A DNA stretch of 64,000 nucleotides from Bdellovibrionales bacterium (GCA_027317865.1 DAHVQG010000004.1:32001-96000); one strand, 5' to 3'. Numbered from the stretch's first letter, positions 42,001-51,000 are shown. Made by a program: the numbers.

Positions 42001-45000
42001 CATCCAGGCGCCTCACGCGGTTCTGTTGACCGATTGATTGATAGAAACCATCAAGCAAATCGGTCAGAAGCGCAACGTCGCGCCCAAGTCCAAGATATGT
42101 CGCACCCGGAAAAGCTCTTTCCATTGACGCAATGATGATTGCCGCATTTTGCGGTGAAAGCGAAACACCGTTATAAAACGGATTTATTGACGGCCATGTA
42201 TTGATTCCATATTTTGCGTCCATCGCAGATACAAACTCGTTTACAGTCGGACGGTTTCTTTGCTCTAAAAGCATTTGAATTGAATCGGCCGACCTCACGT
42301 TCATGCCGGCGGCCCGGCGGCCGTTGAAAACGCCAACTGTAAAAACGCAAATAAACGCCAAGCTTATCCAATACTTCATATACCTTCCAAATTCTCGTGA
42401 TCAATAAGCAAATCAGCGCAACTGTGATTTTCAAAAATATTTTTGTATTGTTTGTATAGCGTCTTCCGCGCATCGGGCTGCAATCGTTCGATAGCTTGCC
42501 GGAGTTGCTCGCGGTTAGGATGCAATTCCAAAAACTTTGCAAATGAAACTGCCACAAAATCCGACATACGCCGTTCATACTTCGGCGTCGGATCTTCTTG
42601 GTCGAACTGTATAAGCCTTACATATTCGCTTGGAGTACGGACATAAGCCCTCATGACCTTTTTCATGTATTCAATAAACGGGGGACCGTGGCGCACCAGC
42701 GTTTTCAGTTCGTTCAATTGGTCAAAGCCGGGATGGCTCGCCATGATTAAATCCAAATTGTCTACCACAATTTGGGCAATCTGAGGTTTATTGAGCGTTC
42801 GGACAACCATCATATTTTTCACATATGAAATAAATGTCTCAGGTGAAGTAAGCGCTTGGCTCCATTCGTAATTTGCCACAAGAGGTATCAGAAGCGCCGA
42901 ATACTTTTCTTTTCGTAAATCATTTTCATCATTGTCGAGATAGTCCTTAATATTCAAATATTCGCTTTCGTTTAACGTAGTGAAAAGATTGTACCGGCGA
43001 ATTACGTAGTCGATAAAATCCGGATCTGCATTCCGAGCAATCAGCGCCGTTAAATTTTCTCGCGAAATATTCAAAGTTTCTGGAATGAGACTTAAACTAT
43101 TCCGGTTATACACGCTGATGATTCCCGGCATAAGCACGCTAAAATCTTTATTTTGAACCGAACGGGGATTAACCTCAAAACCAACCCAAATTTCGCCCGG
43201 TTTTCGAACAGGCGTCTCAGATAAAATAATACCGGGAGGACCCCGCATTGGATTCGTTTTTTGGTCGGGCAGCAACAAGTTAGGAGCGTTGAGTTTACCC
43301 ATACGAAGACGCTCGAATGTTTCAAAGTCATAAATTTTCATATAGGCCGTTTTTATTCCAAGTTCGCCCGCTGTCGCACCCTGTACGCCGCCCAAAGAAA
43401 ACGCCGGCAATGGCTTTTGCTCCATTAACCATGCAAGCGAATCCGTATCACTGCGCGACCCAAACGTAGAAAGGTCTTTGCGCACACCCATTCTGTTTAA
43501 ATCAGCCCATGCGGCGTTTACGTCTAAGGCGTTGTTGATAAGCTTATTTGCGTTTTTTTCGATCCAGCGCAAAGCTCCGTGATATTGCGGATCTGTCTTA
43601 ATTTTTGAAAATGGTGCCGTTCGCAAGATCCTTTCAACAACTTTGAGGCTATTGCGATCGGGTTTAAGGCCATACTCAAATACTTTTATTAAAAACCTCA
43701 ATGCACTGATGACAACAGGATTGCCGGACGAAGATCGCGAAGTGGAATGATGAAGGCCGGTATTAAAATAGGTGATTTCTCCACGGGCGACGTCGTGAAA
43801 AAACAATCCTTCATCGCGGCGGAATTTTCTCAAATCTTGAATTCGTGATCGCTCACCCGTTGGGTCAGTAATCTCAATAAGGCCTGTGGATCCCGAGTCT
43901 GTATTTTGATTCTTAAAATCTTCATTGTTTAAAATGTCCGCCTTGAAACCGATGGAATACTGGAGCGGGCGCACTTCCCAAACCGAAATAGTTTTACCAC
44001 CCGTTGTCTTTTTGTAGGGGAATTTCATCTCAAGGTCATGCTGAAGTTCTTCCGCATATTGAGGTTTCGCGTCAACCACAATATCGATGTCCTGATTAAA
44101 ATGAAATATATTGACGATGCTAAAATCCAGCCGATCAGCGGAGAAGTCCCGCGAACCGAGTTCATATTGTTCCGCCCAACGGCAATAAACGGCAAAGGCC
44201 TCCGCCGCTCCACCAAAAAGATAAGCCCGTATGCCTCTTTTTTCCGCCCATTCCTTTATAAATTGAAACTCTTTTACACGGTCCAAATCAGTCTGGATTA
44301 GCTTTTCAAACTCGAGATACGATCCGTTTTGCCTCGAAATGGAAAGCATTTCGGGGGGATTTTCGTTCGCCGACGCGAACGAAGGCCCGCATATAAGTAC
44401 AAGTGCGAAAACTGGCAAAAGAAATAGATTTAAAACCTTCATCCTTTAATTCGCAACCTTCATTCCTCTTTTGTGTTTGCGCTAACGGGTTGACGTATCA
44501 TTTTCGATAATAGAGTTGCGCACGAAACCGGCTTTGCGTTTTTTGCGCGCGCCTGCCAATCTTCGTACGTCCGAACCGGCTGTTGTGCGCTCTTTAATTT
44601 TTCTTCAATTTTGTGTTCAAGATCCTGAGCTCGCGATTCGCTTATGTCCCCTTTACGCATCAGCTCGGCGACTATCGCGCGAACAAGCGGCCATTTTTCT
44701 TTAAGAACGGCGATCGCAATTTCATGAGCGCGCGAAATCATTTGGCTTTGCTTTTGTTCAAACAATTGCCTTTGTCGCGAAGTTGCAAGAATTGGATTGC
44801 CTTTTTTATCGACTTGAACTCCTACAAGGTCGGTATCCATTCCCCATGTGGTGAGATATTCGGTTGTTACATATCTCATCGATTTCAAATCGTTTTGCCA
44901 TCCAATGTCGGCAGGTAAGCCCGCAAGCTCTTGAGCCACTCGACCGCCCCAAGCTTTAACAAGAAATGCCATCGTCTTATCGTAGTTGAAATTCGTATCC

Positions 45001-48000: not shown

Positions 48001-51000
48001 TATAAATGTTCCACCAAGATTTGGGCTACGCGTTCGGCGGCCGCAGTTTTACCCACTCCGGGTATACCGATAAAAACCGGATTTTTGCCTTTTATCCGCA
48101 CAAGAGTGTCAAGCGCTCGCTCAGCTTCTTTGTCACGCCCCAGTGTTTCGACGAACGAGCCGTTTTCAATGCTCTTTTTCACTTCGTCGGTCATAAAATT
48201 AGTAGTCGCGGTCAGTATGATCTTCGCCGCGGCCATTTTTTCTTCACCTTCCGCTCCGGTGGAATCGCGCAAAAGTTGATCTTTAAACGACTGACCGTCT
48301 TGCGCACTTGCCGTTTGTTCCACCGGTAACGGTGTCGGATTCGAGCGAATGCGCTCTCGAATTTCTAAAAACAAGTCGTCCAATTTATTTTTAGTTTGAG
48401 CGTTGAACGCCGTAGACGCGCGAAATTTTTCGTAAATCTTGTTGAATTGTTCAACTTCAGCGACACTCCCCATCGATCCGATACCGTTAAGATACTCTGA
48501 AATGTGAAAAGAGTTCGGTTTAGGTTTCGCTACCTCGATCTTTAGTTTCGCCATTAGAAAATTTAAAACCATGCGATACGGAAAATCTTTCAGCGACGAA
48601 ATTAATTTGGATGTTTCGACGGGATCACGGCTCGTATCGACGGCTTTCATTTTGCCGATCATGAGATTATATTCTTTTTCAGACGGCGTTCGGCCCGACT
48701 TATTTAAAGACTGTGCAAATCCGCAAGCGCCGAAAAAAATTCCGGCCACAAGCGCGAAAGCGACTAAAATCTCACTTTTTGAATCTAAGATTCGTTTATA
48801 ACTTCGGCGCATGATTCCCCTTTTAGGTTTTGCTTAACCCTTTCAAATAACCTTATTTTTTTCAGCGTCCAGTAGAGCGTCTTTTTCTGGTCGATCTCGT
48901 AAATTTTTTTCTTCAAGTTCGGAACCGTTCTAAAAAGTTTTGCGTATGCTTCGAGAAACGACGACGTAATTTTAAAGTCGCTACTAAGGGCGGCAATCAC
49001 CATGTCGGCCACATCGGCTTGAGTGGCCCACGCGCTCGAATAAGCATTGGATAGGTAATTTAAAAAGCGCGGCATTATTGCGCTAAGCTTGCTCACTGAA
49101 CTGTGTCGTGCCCGTATATGTTGCCAGGTACTCTGAAGGTAATTGAAATTGACGCCGTTTTGTCCCGCCCCATTGCTTTGTGCAACTTGCATAGCGGTTT
49201 CGTTCACAGCTCGCGCTTTAGGCGTGAAATTTGAAAAATCAAACCCGGGAGCGTTCGCCTTTTTCACCATATCGTCATTGTGTTGCAAATCCTGCCTGAT
49301 GATATCGGTGAGGTTCGTCGCGGCAGATGACGGCTCACTCGCCTCAGGTGACGGTCTTTTAAGTGGGAATTCATAACCAAGCTTTTTAGCAGCCTCGTAA
49401 ACTTGATGGTGAAATGTCTCAGAGTTGACTGCGTTCCAAATTTCTTTTTGCATCCATAATATATTTTCGTGCGTTCTCAGATCCGTAATATTTCCGGGAG
49501 TTGCCTTTAACTTTCCGTCTATTGAAACAATCGGCCCGAATGACTCTGTCCACGCCCCGGAAAAATGCTCGTATCCAGCCTCGTTCGATTTGTCTTGGTT
49601 TTCTGAAAAGCCCGTAAGTTTGAACTCGTCCCCGAAATTATGGGGCCGATCTCCGGTCAGGCTAAACTGGATTTCAAGATCACGCGATACGCTCTTGATC
49701 GCTGAAGACGGTACTGGAGCTGATCTAAACGTGCTCACAAACAACGCAAACATGTTTAGCTTTTTAATTAGATCCGCCGGTTTGCCTTTAAGATCATTGG
49801 CGTAATGGGAATACAAGGCGTTCAAAAACATTCGCCCTTGCTGTCCGCCTCCGGTTGAAACGGTATCGACAAACACGTACGGTTCGCGACGTTTGATATC
49901 CTTGAAACTAAAACCGTGTTCCAAAACAAAATGAACCAATGTTTGCGGAGTAACGCCGTTGAAACTGGCCTTGCTTACCATCAACCGCACAACCCGGTTT
50001 TGTTGCCCAATCGAGAGGTAAAATCCTTCGAGCATGTCCGCAATTGCCTGCGAATCGCGGCCGATAAATGCCCATGTCGCACCCGGAAATGTTTTTTCCA
50101 TCGCCGCGATCAGAGTTGGCCCATGCTTAAGCATCACTTTAACCCAATGCTCAGGCTGGTAAACGTGCGCATTTTTGACCTGAATAACGCTCGGTACATC
50201 TTCAAATTCAGGCAACTGGTTTAAAAAAGGTACTGATTCAGCCATCGTCGGGCGCGACGGCATTTCAAGCAGTCGAACAATATCCGGAGGAATATTCACG
50301 GCCCAACTGTTGTCTTGTTGCTGTCCTCGCGAAGTCGCGGACACCGAAACCGTCAGCAAAAAAGTAAAACTATAAATTAAAACTTGTGACGCAATTCTCA
50401 TTCTTCAGCATCCATCGGTTCAAATTCATCTTTGGGGAATTCATGTCTGTCAGACCTTGGGTTCACCAATGATCTTTCAATCTCAACCTTCTTTTGGCTT
50501 TCTAGCTCTTCAACAACGGACGCGACCTTCTCGGCGCTATCGGCAACCAGTATGTGGCTCTTGATTTCTGGCGAAAGCGAACTGTTCGCTATAAATTTAA
50601 GTAAATACGAGTAGTACTTTGAATTTTGAATCACGACGTACGGGGGCCGCTTCGAGTATTGAATCGCCACGAGCGTCGCCGCGAGCTCGCGCATGGTTCC
50701 GTTACCGCCGGGCTCAATAATTACTAAATCACGATTGTTTACTAGCAACGGTATCCGTGAATGGTAATCAAGCGTCGGAATCGTGTGCGATTGAACTTCG
50801 CTTCTTGTATCCGTCTCGTAAGGCAGCGCTCCACGACCGACGCGGGGTATTCCAATTGAAGGTCCACCCGCATCGTAGGCCCCCATGTTTGCCGCGTACA
50901 TAACTCCACCAGCACCTCCGGTAACCACCGGAATGCCGCGGCTCCCGAACCAATATGCCGTTTGATACGTGTCGGGGGCGACTTCTTCGTCTAAACGGCT

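Follow-up and report, generated by a model that had tools for sequence, protein, structure and literature searches.

The window analysed here, a stretch of 64,000 nucleotides from a Bdellovibrionales bacterium, carries on its minus strand an open reading frame, as read from the sequence, which begins with ATG, stays open across 4,353 nt and encodes 1,450 aa followed by a stop codon (P0001; Table 1). The source genome is that of an uncultured organism, obtained from a metagenome, and the predatory habit of the producer is assumed from its phylum. P0001 lies within a run of nine tightly packed genes of the same strand, the products of which all have signal-peptide-like N-termini and include an EEP nuclease/phosphatase, two SLOG/LOG proteins and a PRPP-synthetase-like protein. 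The upstream neighbour, in which no Pfam family was found, overlaps the start of P0001 by 28 nt, and relatives of the downstream neighbour, which as a lead only may be a nucleotidyltransferase, adjoin the protease in 6 of 21 loci.

Table 1. Features of the P0001 locus (positions counted within the window; aa, residues of P0001 for features inside it).
Feature	Position	Strand	Basis
P0001, whole ORF	44460..48812	-	sequence
Shine-Dalgarno-like AAAAGGGG (GGGG), 4 nt 5' of the P0001 ATG	48817..48824	-	read from sequence
Signal-peptide-like N-terminus, aa 1-33	48714..48812	-	heuristic only
N-domain, aa 45-157, six predicted helices, assigned to no family or fold	48342..48680	-	model m2854050f043c
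D1, Clp class-I first AAA+ module, aa 205-460	47433..48200	-	Pfam, PDB sequence match, predicted fold
D2a, first Clp D2-type module, aa 468-782	46467..47411	-	Pfam, PDB sequence match, relatives alignment
D2b, second Clp D2-type module, aa 849-1142	45387..46268	-	PDB sequence match, relatives alignment, predicted fold
Three-stranded beta insert between D2b small domain and M41, aa 1156-1200	45213..45347	-	model me8c1ed621fd2, model residues 317-361
FtsH-type M41 peptidase domain, aa 1211-1405	44598..45182	-	Pfam (49.3 bits), predicted fold
HEAGH zinc motif, aa 1222-1226	45135..45149	-	sequence and alignments
Asp1308, counterpart of the third FtsH zinc ligand by alignment	44889..44891	-	alignment; Asp in 89/91 relatives
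CATLL tail, aa 1431-1435, family C-x-x-Φ-Φ motif	44508..44522	-	relatives alignments
Downstream neighbour, 688 aa, signal-peptide-like N-terminus, CADLL tail	42376..44442	-	sequence, heuristics
Upstream neighbour, 538 aa, signal-peptide-like N-terminus, CAEVI tail	48785..50401	-	sequence, heuristics
Same-strand run of nine closely spaced genes, each with a signal-peptide-like N-terminus	39793..57613	-	gene calls, Pfam, heuristics

The one frame of P0001 contains Pfam matches to AAA (residues 246-376), AAA_2 (537-718 and a second stretch), ClpB_D2-small (1077-1141) and Peptidase_M41 (1215-1396, with 49.3 bits against a cut-off of 29.9), along with a weak match to Torsin (31.6 bits). By sequence, residues 210-453 match ClpC 169-397, residues 468-782 match ClpB 530-822 and residues 849-1139 match ClpC 496-777 among PDB entries. 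The predicted structures (models me8c1ed621fd2 and m2854050f043c, pLDDT 87.9 and 86.3) place D1 on the D1 of ClpC1 (Z 25.9, rmsd 2.4 Å, 252 residues aligned), D2b on the NBD2 of Skd3/ClpB (Z 25.4 / 24.8) and residues 1211-1405 on the FtsH protease domain 2di4_B (Z 17.8, rmsd 2.6 Å, 164 of 175 residues aligned), a part that, compared as a single sequence, matches solved FtsH/AFG3L2 weakly (E 0.0017). The evidence from sequences, from profiles and from predicted folds concurs that Hsp100 modules and an M41 peptidase reside on one polypeptide, as the earlier note on this DNA had proposed, and its description of the M41 site as intact is borne out by the presence of both HEAGH and Asp1308, the latter in a GWQNDL context that aligns with GAGNDI / GAADDI of the genome's own FtsH proteins. 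Of the AAA+ modules, D1 has the Walker A motif GIPGVGKT and the Walker B motif VDE and lacks both a pore-loop Tyr and a middle domain, and D2a has the Walker A motif GTTGTGKT, an I-N-E Walker B motif (Asn619) and the sequence GTVT where a GYVG pore loop is expected; neither of them has a pore-loop aromatic residue. D2b is canonical throughout, comprising Walker A and B, pore-loop Tyr944, sensor-1, Arg finger and sensor-2.

A database search at E<=1e-30 delineates a family of 150 clusters, and the evidence supports the view that throughout the family two or three AAA+ modules of Hsp100/Clp type are linked in one polypeptide to an M41 domain of FtsH type. Residue counts were made on the 91 members that carry the zinc motif among 100 independent full-length representatives of at least 1,000 aa. 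A 611-aa query covering D2b-M41 has matches at E<=1e-40 in 38 of the 401 genomes of the same phylum, where 43 of 401 had been counted before at E<=1e-60; the same layout recurs in 38 genomes of 28 genera, with internal stops in one place only. The previous figure of 57 PF01434 carriers among the 120 best hits was not reproduced, the number being 31 of the 120 matches listed, after which the scores fall from 264 to 144 bits. Confinement to Bdellovibrionota withstood the search: every organism-named member belongs to Bdellovibrionota, Oligoflexia or an unclassified 'Deltaproteobacteria' or 'Proteobacteria' MAG, and the family is absent from 1,204 sampled genomes of four other phyla (0/401, 0/301, 0/251 and 0/251). 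Members had been said to be annotated only as 'AAA family ATPase'; the labels are indeed generic, but they also include 'hypothetical protein' and, at JGI, 'ClpA/ClpC', and no curated family or paper that describes the P0001 family was found. Both paralogs named by the earlier note are present in the genome: one (C22:92359-95850; 1,163 aa by ORF call, which extends to 95850 and not to 95814) has two AAA_2 or D2-like modules plus M41 at 62.5 bits, and the other (C38:191229-194516; 1,095 aa) has an M41 match of 25.9 bits only, below the 29.9 cut-off.

The N-terminus of P0001 had been described as a membrane helix. A hydrophobic segment does exist there (the uncharged stretch of aa 15-37), but it has the features of a signal peptide rather than those of an anchor. 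Signal peptides were called by heuristics of our own in place of a trained predictor, and transmembrane (TM) segments by hydropathy scan. By these heuristics P0001 shows the hallmarks of a Sec type-I signal peptide, namely a positive n-region (MRRSYKR..K), a short core, a small-x-small ending with a possible cleavage site between GFA and QS, and the absence of any later TM segment; FGAC would make a weak lipobox instead. An N-terminal hydrophobic 10-mer is found in 81 of the 91 full-length relatives, the remaining 10 including several apparently shortened gene calls, and a later TM-like segment is missing from P0001 and from 90/91 relatives. The net charge averages +2.8 in the N-terminal flank of the segment and -1.1 in the C-terminal flank, with the N side the more positive in 77/81; the segment ends in small-x-small in 74/81, and the uncharged stretch has a median length of 20 residues, reaching 28. 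As own-genome controls, both FtsH proteins have, besides the N-terminal segment, one TM-like segment further on, and the ClpB and ClpA-like proteins show none.

At the other end of the protein lies a C-x-x-Φ-Φ motif (Φ being a hydrophobic or aromatic residue), which is invariant in two sets of relatives (26/26 and 21/21); a Cys occurs within the last 35 aa in 88 of the 91. Operon neighbours with signal peptides bear the same motif. At the C-termini of signal-peptide-like ORFs the motif is enriched (22/564, as against 4-6/564 in internal windows), and at those of other ORFs there is no enrichment (38/1,795, as against 36-43 internally); compared directly, the two classes, which are crude, differ modestly (odds ratio 1.9, p 0.03). 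A CaaX prenylation box was considered and rejected: the Cys stands exactly four from the end, with three residues after it, in 1/88 tails, the number of residues after it having a mode of five and a range of 1-24.

These features bear on which side of the membrane the enzyme works. In one model, implicit in the earlier note, the same fusion protease faces the cytoplasm, with the segment as an uncleaved anchor, a short N-terminal tail outside and the ATPase-protease inside, which would make it a single-helix counterpart of FtsH for the breakdown of the producer's own membrane or cytoplasmic proteins. This would place it where ATP is present and where, as far as we know and as is well established, every known bacterial AAA+ protease acts, and it would suit both the fairly long uncharged stretch and an M41 lineage that is otherwise membrane-bound; however, the charge bias runs in the opposite direction, the small-x-small ending is common, the second TM segment that the genome's own FtsH proteins have is missing in nearly all relatives, and the adjacent genes, like the tail motif that they share with it, fall into the signal-peptide class. 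Given the signal-peptide features and the lack of a second transmembrane helix, the FtsH-like, cytoplasm-facing arrangement is less likely, and we regard it as rather unlikely. Since a Sec-type signal peptide is combined with no other membrane segment, P0001 would most likely be translocated out of the cytoplasm of its producer. The bacterial periplasm is held to lack ATP, and an exported ATPase would therefore need an unusual destination, which is perhaps the prey.

Conservation among the relatives points to selection for catalytic function. In D2b, the Walker A Lys (91 of 91), the Walker B Asp (85) and Glu (89), sensor-1 (89), the Arg finger (90) and sensor-2 (90) are kept, while the pore-loop aromatics are kept loosely (Tyr 30, Phe 12, His 10 of 91), which is in part alignment noise. 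The Walker B residue of D2a is Asn in 67 and Asp in 22 of the 91, next to a Walker A Lys (89), catalytic Glu (87), sensor-1 (88), Arg finger (87) and sensor-2 (83). The report of a Walker B Asn and no pore Tyr in this first D2-like module (Asn619, GTVT) is correct, but the suggestion that the module may be inactive seems too pessimistic, because Asn is the family norm beside conserved Lys, Glu, sensor-1, Arg finger and sensor-2; D2a looks like a specialised nucleotide site, and not like decay. In an alignment of 26 relatives not chosen for HExxH, this motif is present in 24 and lost in two (YREVGQ and FHHIGH). These two losses, the sub-threshold M41 match of the C38 paralog and the chains of the chloroplast Ycf2-FtsHi motor, which match over both domains (8xks_B, Z 18.9; 8xkv_F, Z 18.1), would agree with a motor or chaperone driven by ATP, in which M41 is a ring scaffold, as it is in that import motor, and partners, e.g. 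the co-encoded tail-tagged proteins, are pulled or unfolded and left uncut. We consider this quite improbable, as HEAGH is intact in P0001 and in the great majority of relatives, and the Asp ligand is kept in 89/91, conservation of a kind that a scaffold role alone would not lead one to expect. An assembly chimera, or read-through between distinct Clp and FtsH genes, to which a metagenome-derived sequence could give rise, is already contradicted by the 4,353-nt open frame, the 100 independent full-length representatives (91 with the zinc motif) and the repetition of the layout across 38 genomes of 28 genera without internal stops in all but one place, and is discounted for practical purposes.

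On balance, we think it probable, with some reserve, that P0001 belongs to a Bdellovibrionota family of exported ATP-dependent metalloproteases of new architecture, self-contained, ring-forming and substrate-threading. In this model, the Hsp100/Clp-type tiers D1, D2a and D2b would replace the single classic AAA ring of FtsH and be joined covalently to M41, and the subunits would assemble into a ring through the AAA+ tiers and head-to-tail M41 contacts. For three copies of the M41 domain, a head-to-tail packing is predicted with a score of 0.63, where the best of 3 controls scored 0.00; different runs had at least 89% of the contacts in common, and the partner pLDDT was 80 or more. The mark applied is one reached by 20/30 solved pairs and 1/23 single chains, a calibration that carries over to this case only approximately; as FtsH hexamers have already been solved, this result may reflect the likeness to FtsH. 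Substrate would be engaged by the helical N-domain and D1, following which D2b, the only tier with all catalytic and pore-loop residues canonical, would draw the unfolded polypeptide along the axial pore to the M41 chamber, for cleavage by the zinc held by HEAGH and Asp. D2a would be a nucleotide-binding tier, conserved but probably slow in hydrolysis, with a role in assembly or regulation. The site of action would have to offer ATP. A more specific version, which is tentative, has predatory Bdellovibrionota delivering the Sec-exported unfoldase-protease into prey, the ATP of which would power the wholesale destruction of the prey's folded proteins; it would travel with other exported enzymes that use nucleotides, the PRPP-synthetase-like, LOG/SLOG, nucleotidyltransferase-like and EEP proteins, with the undescribed C-x-x-Φ-Φ tag on all of them as a sorting or attachment signal for such cargo.

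Known designs of ATP-dependent proteases are few (Clp, HslUV, Lon, FtsH and the proteasome-linked ATPases), and a machine in which a stack of three AAA+ tiers is joined covalently as Hsp100-M41 would be a new one. P0001 would also be a natural experiment in the division of labour among tiers, with one full motor, one tier with a Walker B Asn and one without a pore aromatic. If the export reading is true, this would be the first bacterial AAA+ protease built to work outside the cytoplasm of its producer, with a bearing on how bacterial predators dismantle the proteins of their prey, and the shared C-terminal Cys tag would be a handle for finding the rest of the exported set.

With FtsH and the mitochondrial m-/i-AAA proteases (MEROPS M41), P0001 shares the peptidase fold (2di4_B, Z 17.8), the HExxH and Asp zinc ligands, an AAA+ module fused directly upstream of M41 and the predicted head-to-tail packing of M41. 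It differs in that FtsH has a single classic-clade AAA, whereas the P0001 family has two or three Clp/Hsp100 modules, of which the adjoining one matches ClpB/Skd3 NBD2; FtsH has two TM helices flanking a periplasmic domain, whereas P0001 has one signal-peptide-like segment, and P0001 has a beta insert between ATPase and peptidase. NCBIfam FtsH_fam (TIGR01241) scores 47 bits against a cut-off of 600, over residues 1215-1392 only. Like ClpA/B/C, P0001 has tandem D1 and D2 modules with Walker A/B motifs, by sequence and predicted fold, and ClpB_D2-small, but it has a third AAA+ tier (a duplicated D2), and its peptidase is fused, in contrast to the separate ClpP. Clp_N (PF02861), which the ClpB/ClpC entries carry, does not figure in the precomputed Pfam list for P0001, and there is no coiled-coil middle domain of the kind seen in ClpB and ClpC, for which there is no room since the D1 match stops at 453 and that of D2a begins at 468. 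The scores lie far below the NCBIfam equivalog cut-offs for ClpB (248.7 vs 1232.1), ClpA (225.8 vs 993.15) and ClpV (255.8 vs 884.95), and a regular-expression scan for the ClpP-docking IG[FL] motif gave IGL twice (392 and 806) and VGL once (1099), none of them between sensor-1 and Arg finger of a D2.

Lon (LonA/LonB) resembles P0001 in having an AAA+ of the same broad clade as Clp D2 in one chain with a peptidase (Lon AAA+ fold match 6n2i_A, Z 18.0), but its peptidase is a Ser-Lys S16 enzyme behind one AAA+ tier, as opposed to zinc M41 and three tiers, and no S16 peptidase (Lon_C) is among the Pfam families of P0001. Clp-type AAA+ proteins with signal sequences that are active outside the cytosol of their producer are Plasmodium HSP101 of the PTEX translocon, which is among the top fold matches to the P0001 model (6e10_1, Z 24.1), and the ER-lumenal torsins; unlike P0001, these are eukaryotic, lack a peptidase and work in compartments with a known ATP supply, and we know of no bacterial counterpart. 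The Ycf2-FtsHi motor, finally, is likewise a multi-AAA assembly, made of FtsH-like chains with M41 domains, and matches in structure over both domains. It is, however, assembled from separate chains into a hetero-oligomer, its AAA modules are classic and its M41 sites are mostly inactive, whereas P0001 combines its modules in one chain and retains intact zinc ligands.

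P0001, the 1,450-aa protease under study, is encoded on contig C37, of which the window covers positions 32001-96000, in a 2.65-Mb genome assembled in 42 contigs and 99% complete. A GGGG Shine-Dalgarno sequence is read 4 bases upstream of its ATG, and the Pfam families tabulated below lie in a single reading frame. Matches to solved structures resolve three Clp-type AAA+ modules, D1, D2a and D2b, ahead of an FtsH-type zinc peptidase domain (M41); they leave no space for a middle domain between the end of D1 (residue 453) and the start of D2a (468), and Clp_N is absent from the Pfam listing. 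Predicted folds agree. Residues 840-1450, folded with a 21-row family alignment (pLDDT 87.9, pTM 0.77), gave a D2b that matched Skd3 and ClpB NBD2 (Z 25.4 and 24.8) in a structure search independent of Foldseek, while P0001 residues 1211-1405 matched the FtsH protease domain as solved by crystallography (2di4_B; Z 17.8; 164/175 residues at rmsd 2.6 Å) and whole FtsH chains covered both parts (4ww0_A, Z 17.9). Foldseek against the PDB with the same 611-residue model returned Clp D2 chains only, the M41 match coming only from the wider search. Residues 34-480, folded with a 10-row alignment (pLDDT 86.3), gave a D1 that matched ClpC1 D1 (Z 25.9). The claim of an earlier note that D1, two D2 modules and M41 share one polypeptide is thus borne out by Pfam, PDB matches and predicted folds alike. 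In the models, three beta strands (aa 1156-1200) are inserted where the small domain of D2b gives way to M41, and a six-helix domain (aa 45-157) stands ahead of D1; D1 matches took up the fold-search list of that second model, so the lack of a match for the six helices does not point to a new fold.

Features of P0001, its paralogs and its surroundings (window coordinates unless marked aa, which are residues of P0001)
Feature	Position	Strand	Remark
P0001 ORF	44460..48812	-	1,450 codons, ATG start, single open frame; sequence reading
AAA	aa 246-376		Pfam
AAA_2	aa 537-718 and a second stretch		Pfam
ClpB_D2-small	aa 1077-1141		Pfam
Peptidase_M41	aa 1215-1396		Pfam, 49.3 bits, cut-off 29.9
D1	aa 210-453		ClpC 169-397; match to solved structures
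D2a	aa 468-782		ClpB 530-822 (D2); match to solved structures
D2b	aa 849-1139		ClpC 496-777 (D2); match to solved structures
Nine-gene run	39793..57613	-	tightly packed, operon-like; all with signal-peptide-like N-termini (hydropathy scan)
Three paralogous proteins	40871-42379, 48785-50401, 53594-55198	-	502, 538, 534 aa; 30-37% identity
688-aa protein	42376-44442	-	G-G...D-I-D-like stretch; relatives adjoin protease in 6/21 loci
C-termini with tail motif	40871-42379, 42376-44442, 44460-48812, 48785-50401, 52155-53597, 53594-55198	-
478-aa protein	58089-59525	-	N-terminus receiver-like by eye (response regulator); directly upstream of run
564-aa protein	59526-61220	-	TM-like segments; directly upstream, same strand as run
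Paralog on contig C22			1,163 aa; D2-D2-M41
Paralog on contig C38			1,095 aa, divergent; M41 sub-threshold

P0001 belongs to a diverse family. A scan of 1.84 billion representatives with a D2b-M41 query (E<=1e-30) found 150 clusters, most of which extend over both domains (query residues 2 to about 560); 100 are at least 1,000 aa long with a Met start, and in 91 of those a zinc motif lies near the end. Where source names are given, they are Bdellovibrionaceae, Pseudobdellovibrionaceae, Bdellovibrionales, Bdellovibrionota, Oligoflexia, and 'Deltaproteobacteria' or 'Proteobacteria' MAGs; annotations read 'AAA family ATPase' or 'hypothetical protein', with ClpA/ClpC used by JGI. PF01434 occurs on the first 31 of the 120 matches listed from a word-indexed database, after which scores fall from 264 to 144 bits and ordinary ClpB/ClpC follow. 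In whole genomes, counted as samples and not as a census, the query was found in 38/401 of the own phylum at E<=1e-40 (28/203 genera, and only 1/100 genomes of one large family), as against 0/401, 0/301, 0/251 and 0/251 genomes in samples of four other phyla (E<=1e-35), where ordinary ClpB reaches about 1e-22 with its D2 part only. The restriction to Bdellovibrionota that had been claimed as far as searched holds within this sampling, and the two paralogs proposed for the home genome were both recovered. Among the 120 matches listed for a homolog search with the family alignment, 12 are family members and ClpB/ClpC predominate; a motif-pattern search of genome contigs (HEAGHA, Walker) yielded, among the matches listed, 80 loci of ordinary FtsH or ClpB/ClpC and has no bearing on range. 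P0001 passes no NCBIfam model. Architectures within the family differ in the presence of the N-domain and of D1, and a few longer fusions occur: P0205 (2,327 aa), P0196 (2,040 aa) and, in other genomes, G388:C48 (open frame of 2,176 aa) and G015:C172 (2,330 aa). One longer member is named a SUMF1/EgtB/PvdO-family enzyme by its source; the D2-M41 core of some lineages thus carries additional fused domains.

Of the AAA+ modules of P0001, D1 has both Walker motifs intact and lacks the pore-loop Tyr; every motif of D2b is canonical; D2a keeps its Walker A but reads I-N-E where D-E is usual, and GTVT stands at the place of the Clp D2 GYVG. M41 carries HEAGH, and one of its Asp residues lines up with the zinc ligand in both FtsH proteins of the same genome, as the earlier reading had it. 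The Asp is kept in 89/91 full-length relatives; these were selected by H[EH]xxH, which makes His counts in that set circular, and in an alignment not selected for the zinc motif HExxH is found in 24/26 rows. D2b is nearly invariant across the 91 (Lys 91, Asp 85, Glu 89, sensor-1 89, Arg finger 90, sensor-2 90). The earlier suspicion that D2a, with its Walker B Asn and no pore Tyr, may be inactive fares less well, since Asn occupies the first Walker B position in 67 of the 91 (Asp in 22) beside conserved Lys (89), Glu (87), sensor-1 (88), Arg finger (87) and sensor-2 (83); on the sequences compared, Asn is a family trait next to an otherwise intact site and does not indicate decay. The two D2 modules share 27% identity, and each shares 26-27% with the D2 of the genome's own ClpB; being no closer to each other than to ClpB D2, they therefore reflect an old duplication.

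The membrane helix noted earlier stands as a hydrophobic N-terminal segment, though probably not as an anchor. A hydrophobic 10-mer lies within the first 60 residues in 81/91 relatives, several of the other 10 looking like shortened gene calls, and 90/91 have no later TM-like segment, whereas the same scan found the expected second TM segment in the genome's own FtsH proteins and no hydrophobic N-terminus in its ClpB and ClpA-like proteins. Mean net charge is +2.8 before the segment and -1.1 after it, the N side being the more positive in 77/81; by the positive-inside rule, most of the protein should be translocated. A small-x-small pattern ends the hydrophobic stretch in 74/81 (VFA|NQ, ASA|AP, AWA|QN, and VRA|ET in the C22 paralog). 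Read heuristically, these features point to a signal peptide rather than an FtsH-style anchor. The Tat route was rejected: P0001 begins MRRSYKR without an S/T-R-R-x-F-L-K-like motif, and its relatives lack the paired Arg.

At the other end of the protein, one Cys is invariant in both family alignments and falls within the last 35 residues in 88/91 relatives, compared with 87/3,147 control windows. Position +3 after it holds Leu/Ala/Ile/Phe and position +4 Leu/Phe/Tyr, and the resulting tail motif, defined as C-x-x-[LIVFA]-[LIFY] 4-25 residues from the end, is carried by all three paralogs and by five further operon proteins (CDDLL, CADLL, CAEVI, CQAIL, CSDVL). In other genera, too, proteins encoded beside the protease end in it, for instance four consecutive large proteins at locus L125. 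Genome-wide, it occurs on 22/564 C-termini of signal-peptide-like ORFs against 4-6/564 internal windows, while the remaining ORFs show no enrichment (38/1,795 against 36-43 internal windows); compared directly, the two classes, which are crudely assigned, differ modestly (odds ratio 1.9, p 0.03). The motif matched no curated family, and Creative-Commons PMC full texts and bioRxiv yielded no paper on it, so that it may serve as a so far undescribed signal for sorting or attachment. A cysteine switch, in which the tail Cys would cap the M41 zinc, ranks below that role, as the tail is modelled at low confidence (pLDDT 52-71, below 50 from model residue 602) and the motif also occurs on neighbours that are not proteases. 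A CaaX box fails, the Cys standing four residues from the end in only 1/88. Over their whole length, the 91 representatives are extremely poor in Cys (0.19%, with 2.6 residues in a protein of about 1,350 aa), and the tail Cys, often with one in the signal peptide, makes up much of the family's total.

The nine-gene run includes an EEP nuclease/phosphatase, two SLOG/LOG-domain proteins and a protein resembling PRPP synthetase, which scores above the TIGR01251 cut-off (152 bits against 113); the ordinary PRPP synthetase is encoded elsewhere on the contig. The three mutually paralogous proteins matched no Pfam, NCBIfam or PADLOC family, and two more copies adjoin a protease homolog at locus L138. 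For the 688-aa protein, the nearest ESM Atlas clusters are Gad2 and PolyA_pol nucleotidyltransferases; with 112 shared features and a score of 0.85, which the tool does not rate as trustworthy, this is a lead that the protein may be a nucleotidyltransferase. Apart from relatives of this protein, the protease neighbourhood is not conserved over 21 loci. PADLOC gave generic AAA_2-type matches (PDC-M37B, DolB) and weak matches for neighbours, and recognised no defence system at the P0001 locus. Several of the operon's enzymes use ATP or nucleotides yet carry putative export signals, which is unexpected. The two proteins directly upstream might form a two-component pair that regulates the run.

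By analogy with FtsH, Lon and the Clp machines, P0001 subunits would form a ring whose stacked AAA+ tiers thread substrates to a chamber of M41 domains. D2b would likely be the main motor and D2a a conserved nucleotide-binding tier with altered chemistry, with D1 and the N-domain probably engaging substrates. In a prediction with three M41 copies, these pack head to tail and use two distinct surfaces; the score is 0.63 where the best of three controls has 0.00, runs share at least 89% of contacts, and partner pLDDT is 80 or more, a mark reached by 20/30 solved pairs and 1/23 single chains in a benchmark only roughly valid here; because FtsH hexamers are already solved, this speaks for likeness and is not independent proof. 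Given an export signal, the protease should act in a compartment with ATP, for which the prey cell would be the obvious candidate in a member of a predatory phylum, that lifestyle being assumed for an uncultured metagenome genome. In B. bacteriovorus, native Sec signal peptides alone drove reporter release into the supernatant (PMC12622784), although in another organism and with a small cargo.

Neither an Hsp100/Clp-M41 fusion nor an exported bacterial AAA+ protease was found reported in Creative-Commons PMC full texts and bioRxiv, and a term search of PMC11656739 gave no match for M41, FtsH, AAA or ClpB. P0001 falls outside FtsH, with an ATPase of another clade, another topology and a score far below the cut-off, and outside ClpA/B/C, being without Clp_N and middle domain and below the cut-offs; it would work like both. 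With Lon it shares the design principle, though not the peptidase. For Clp-type ATPases that act beyond the cytosol of their producer, the nearest known precedents are eukaryotic, namely PTEX HSP101 and the torsins. Export to prey, if shown, would make these proteases a much bigger departure.
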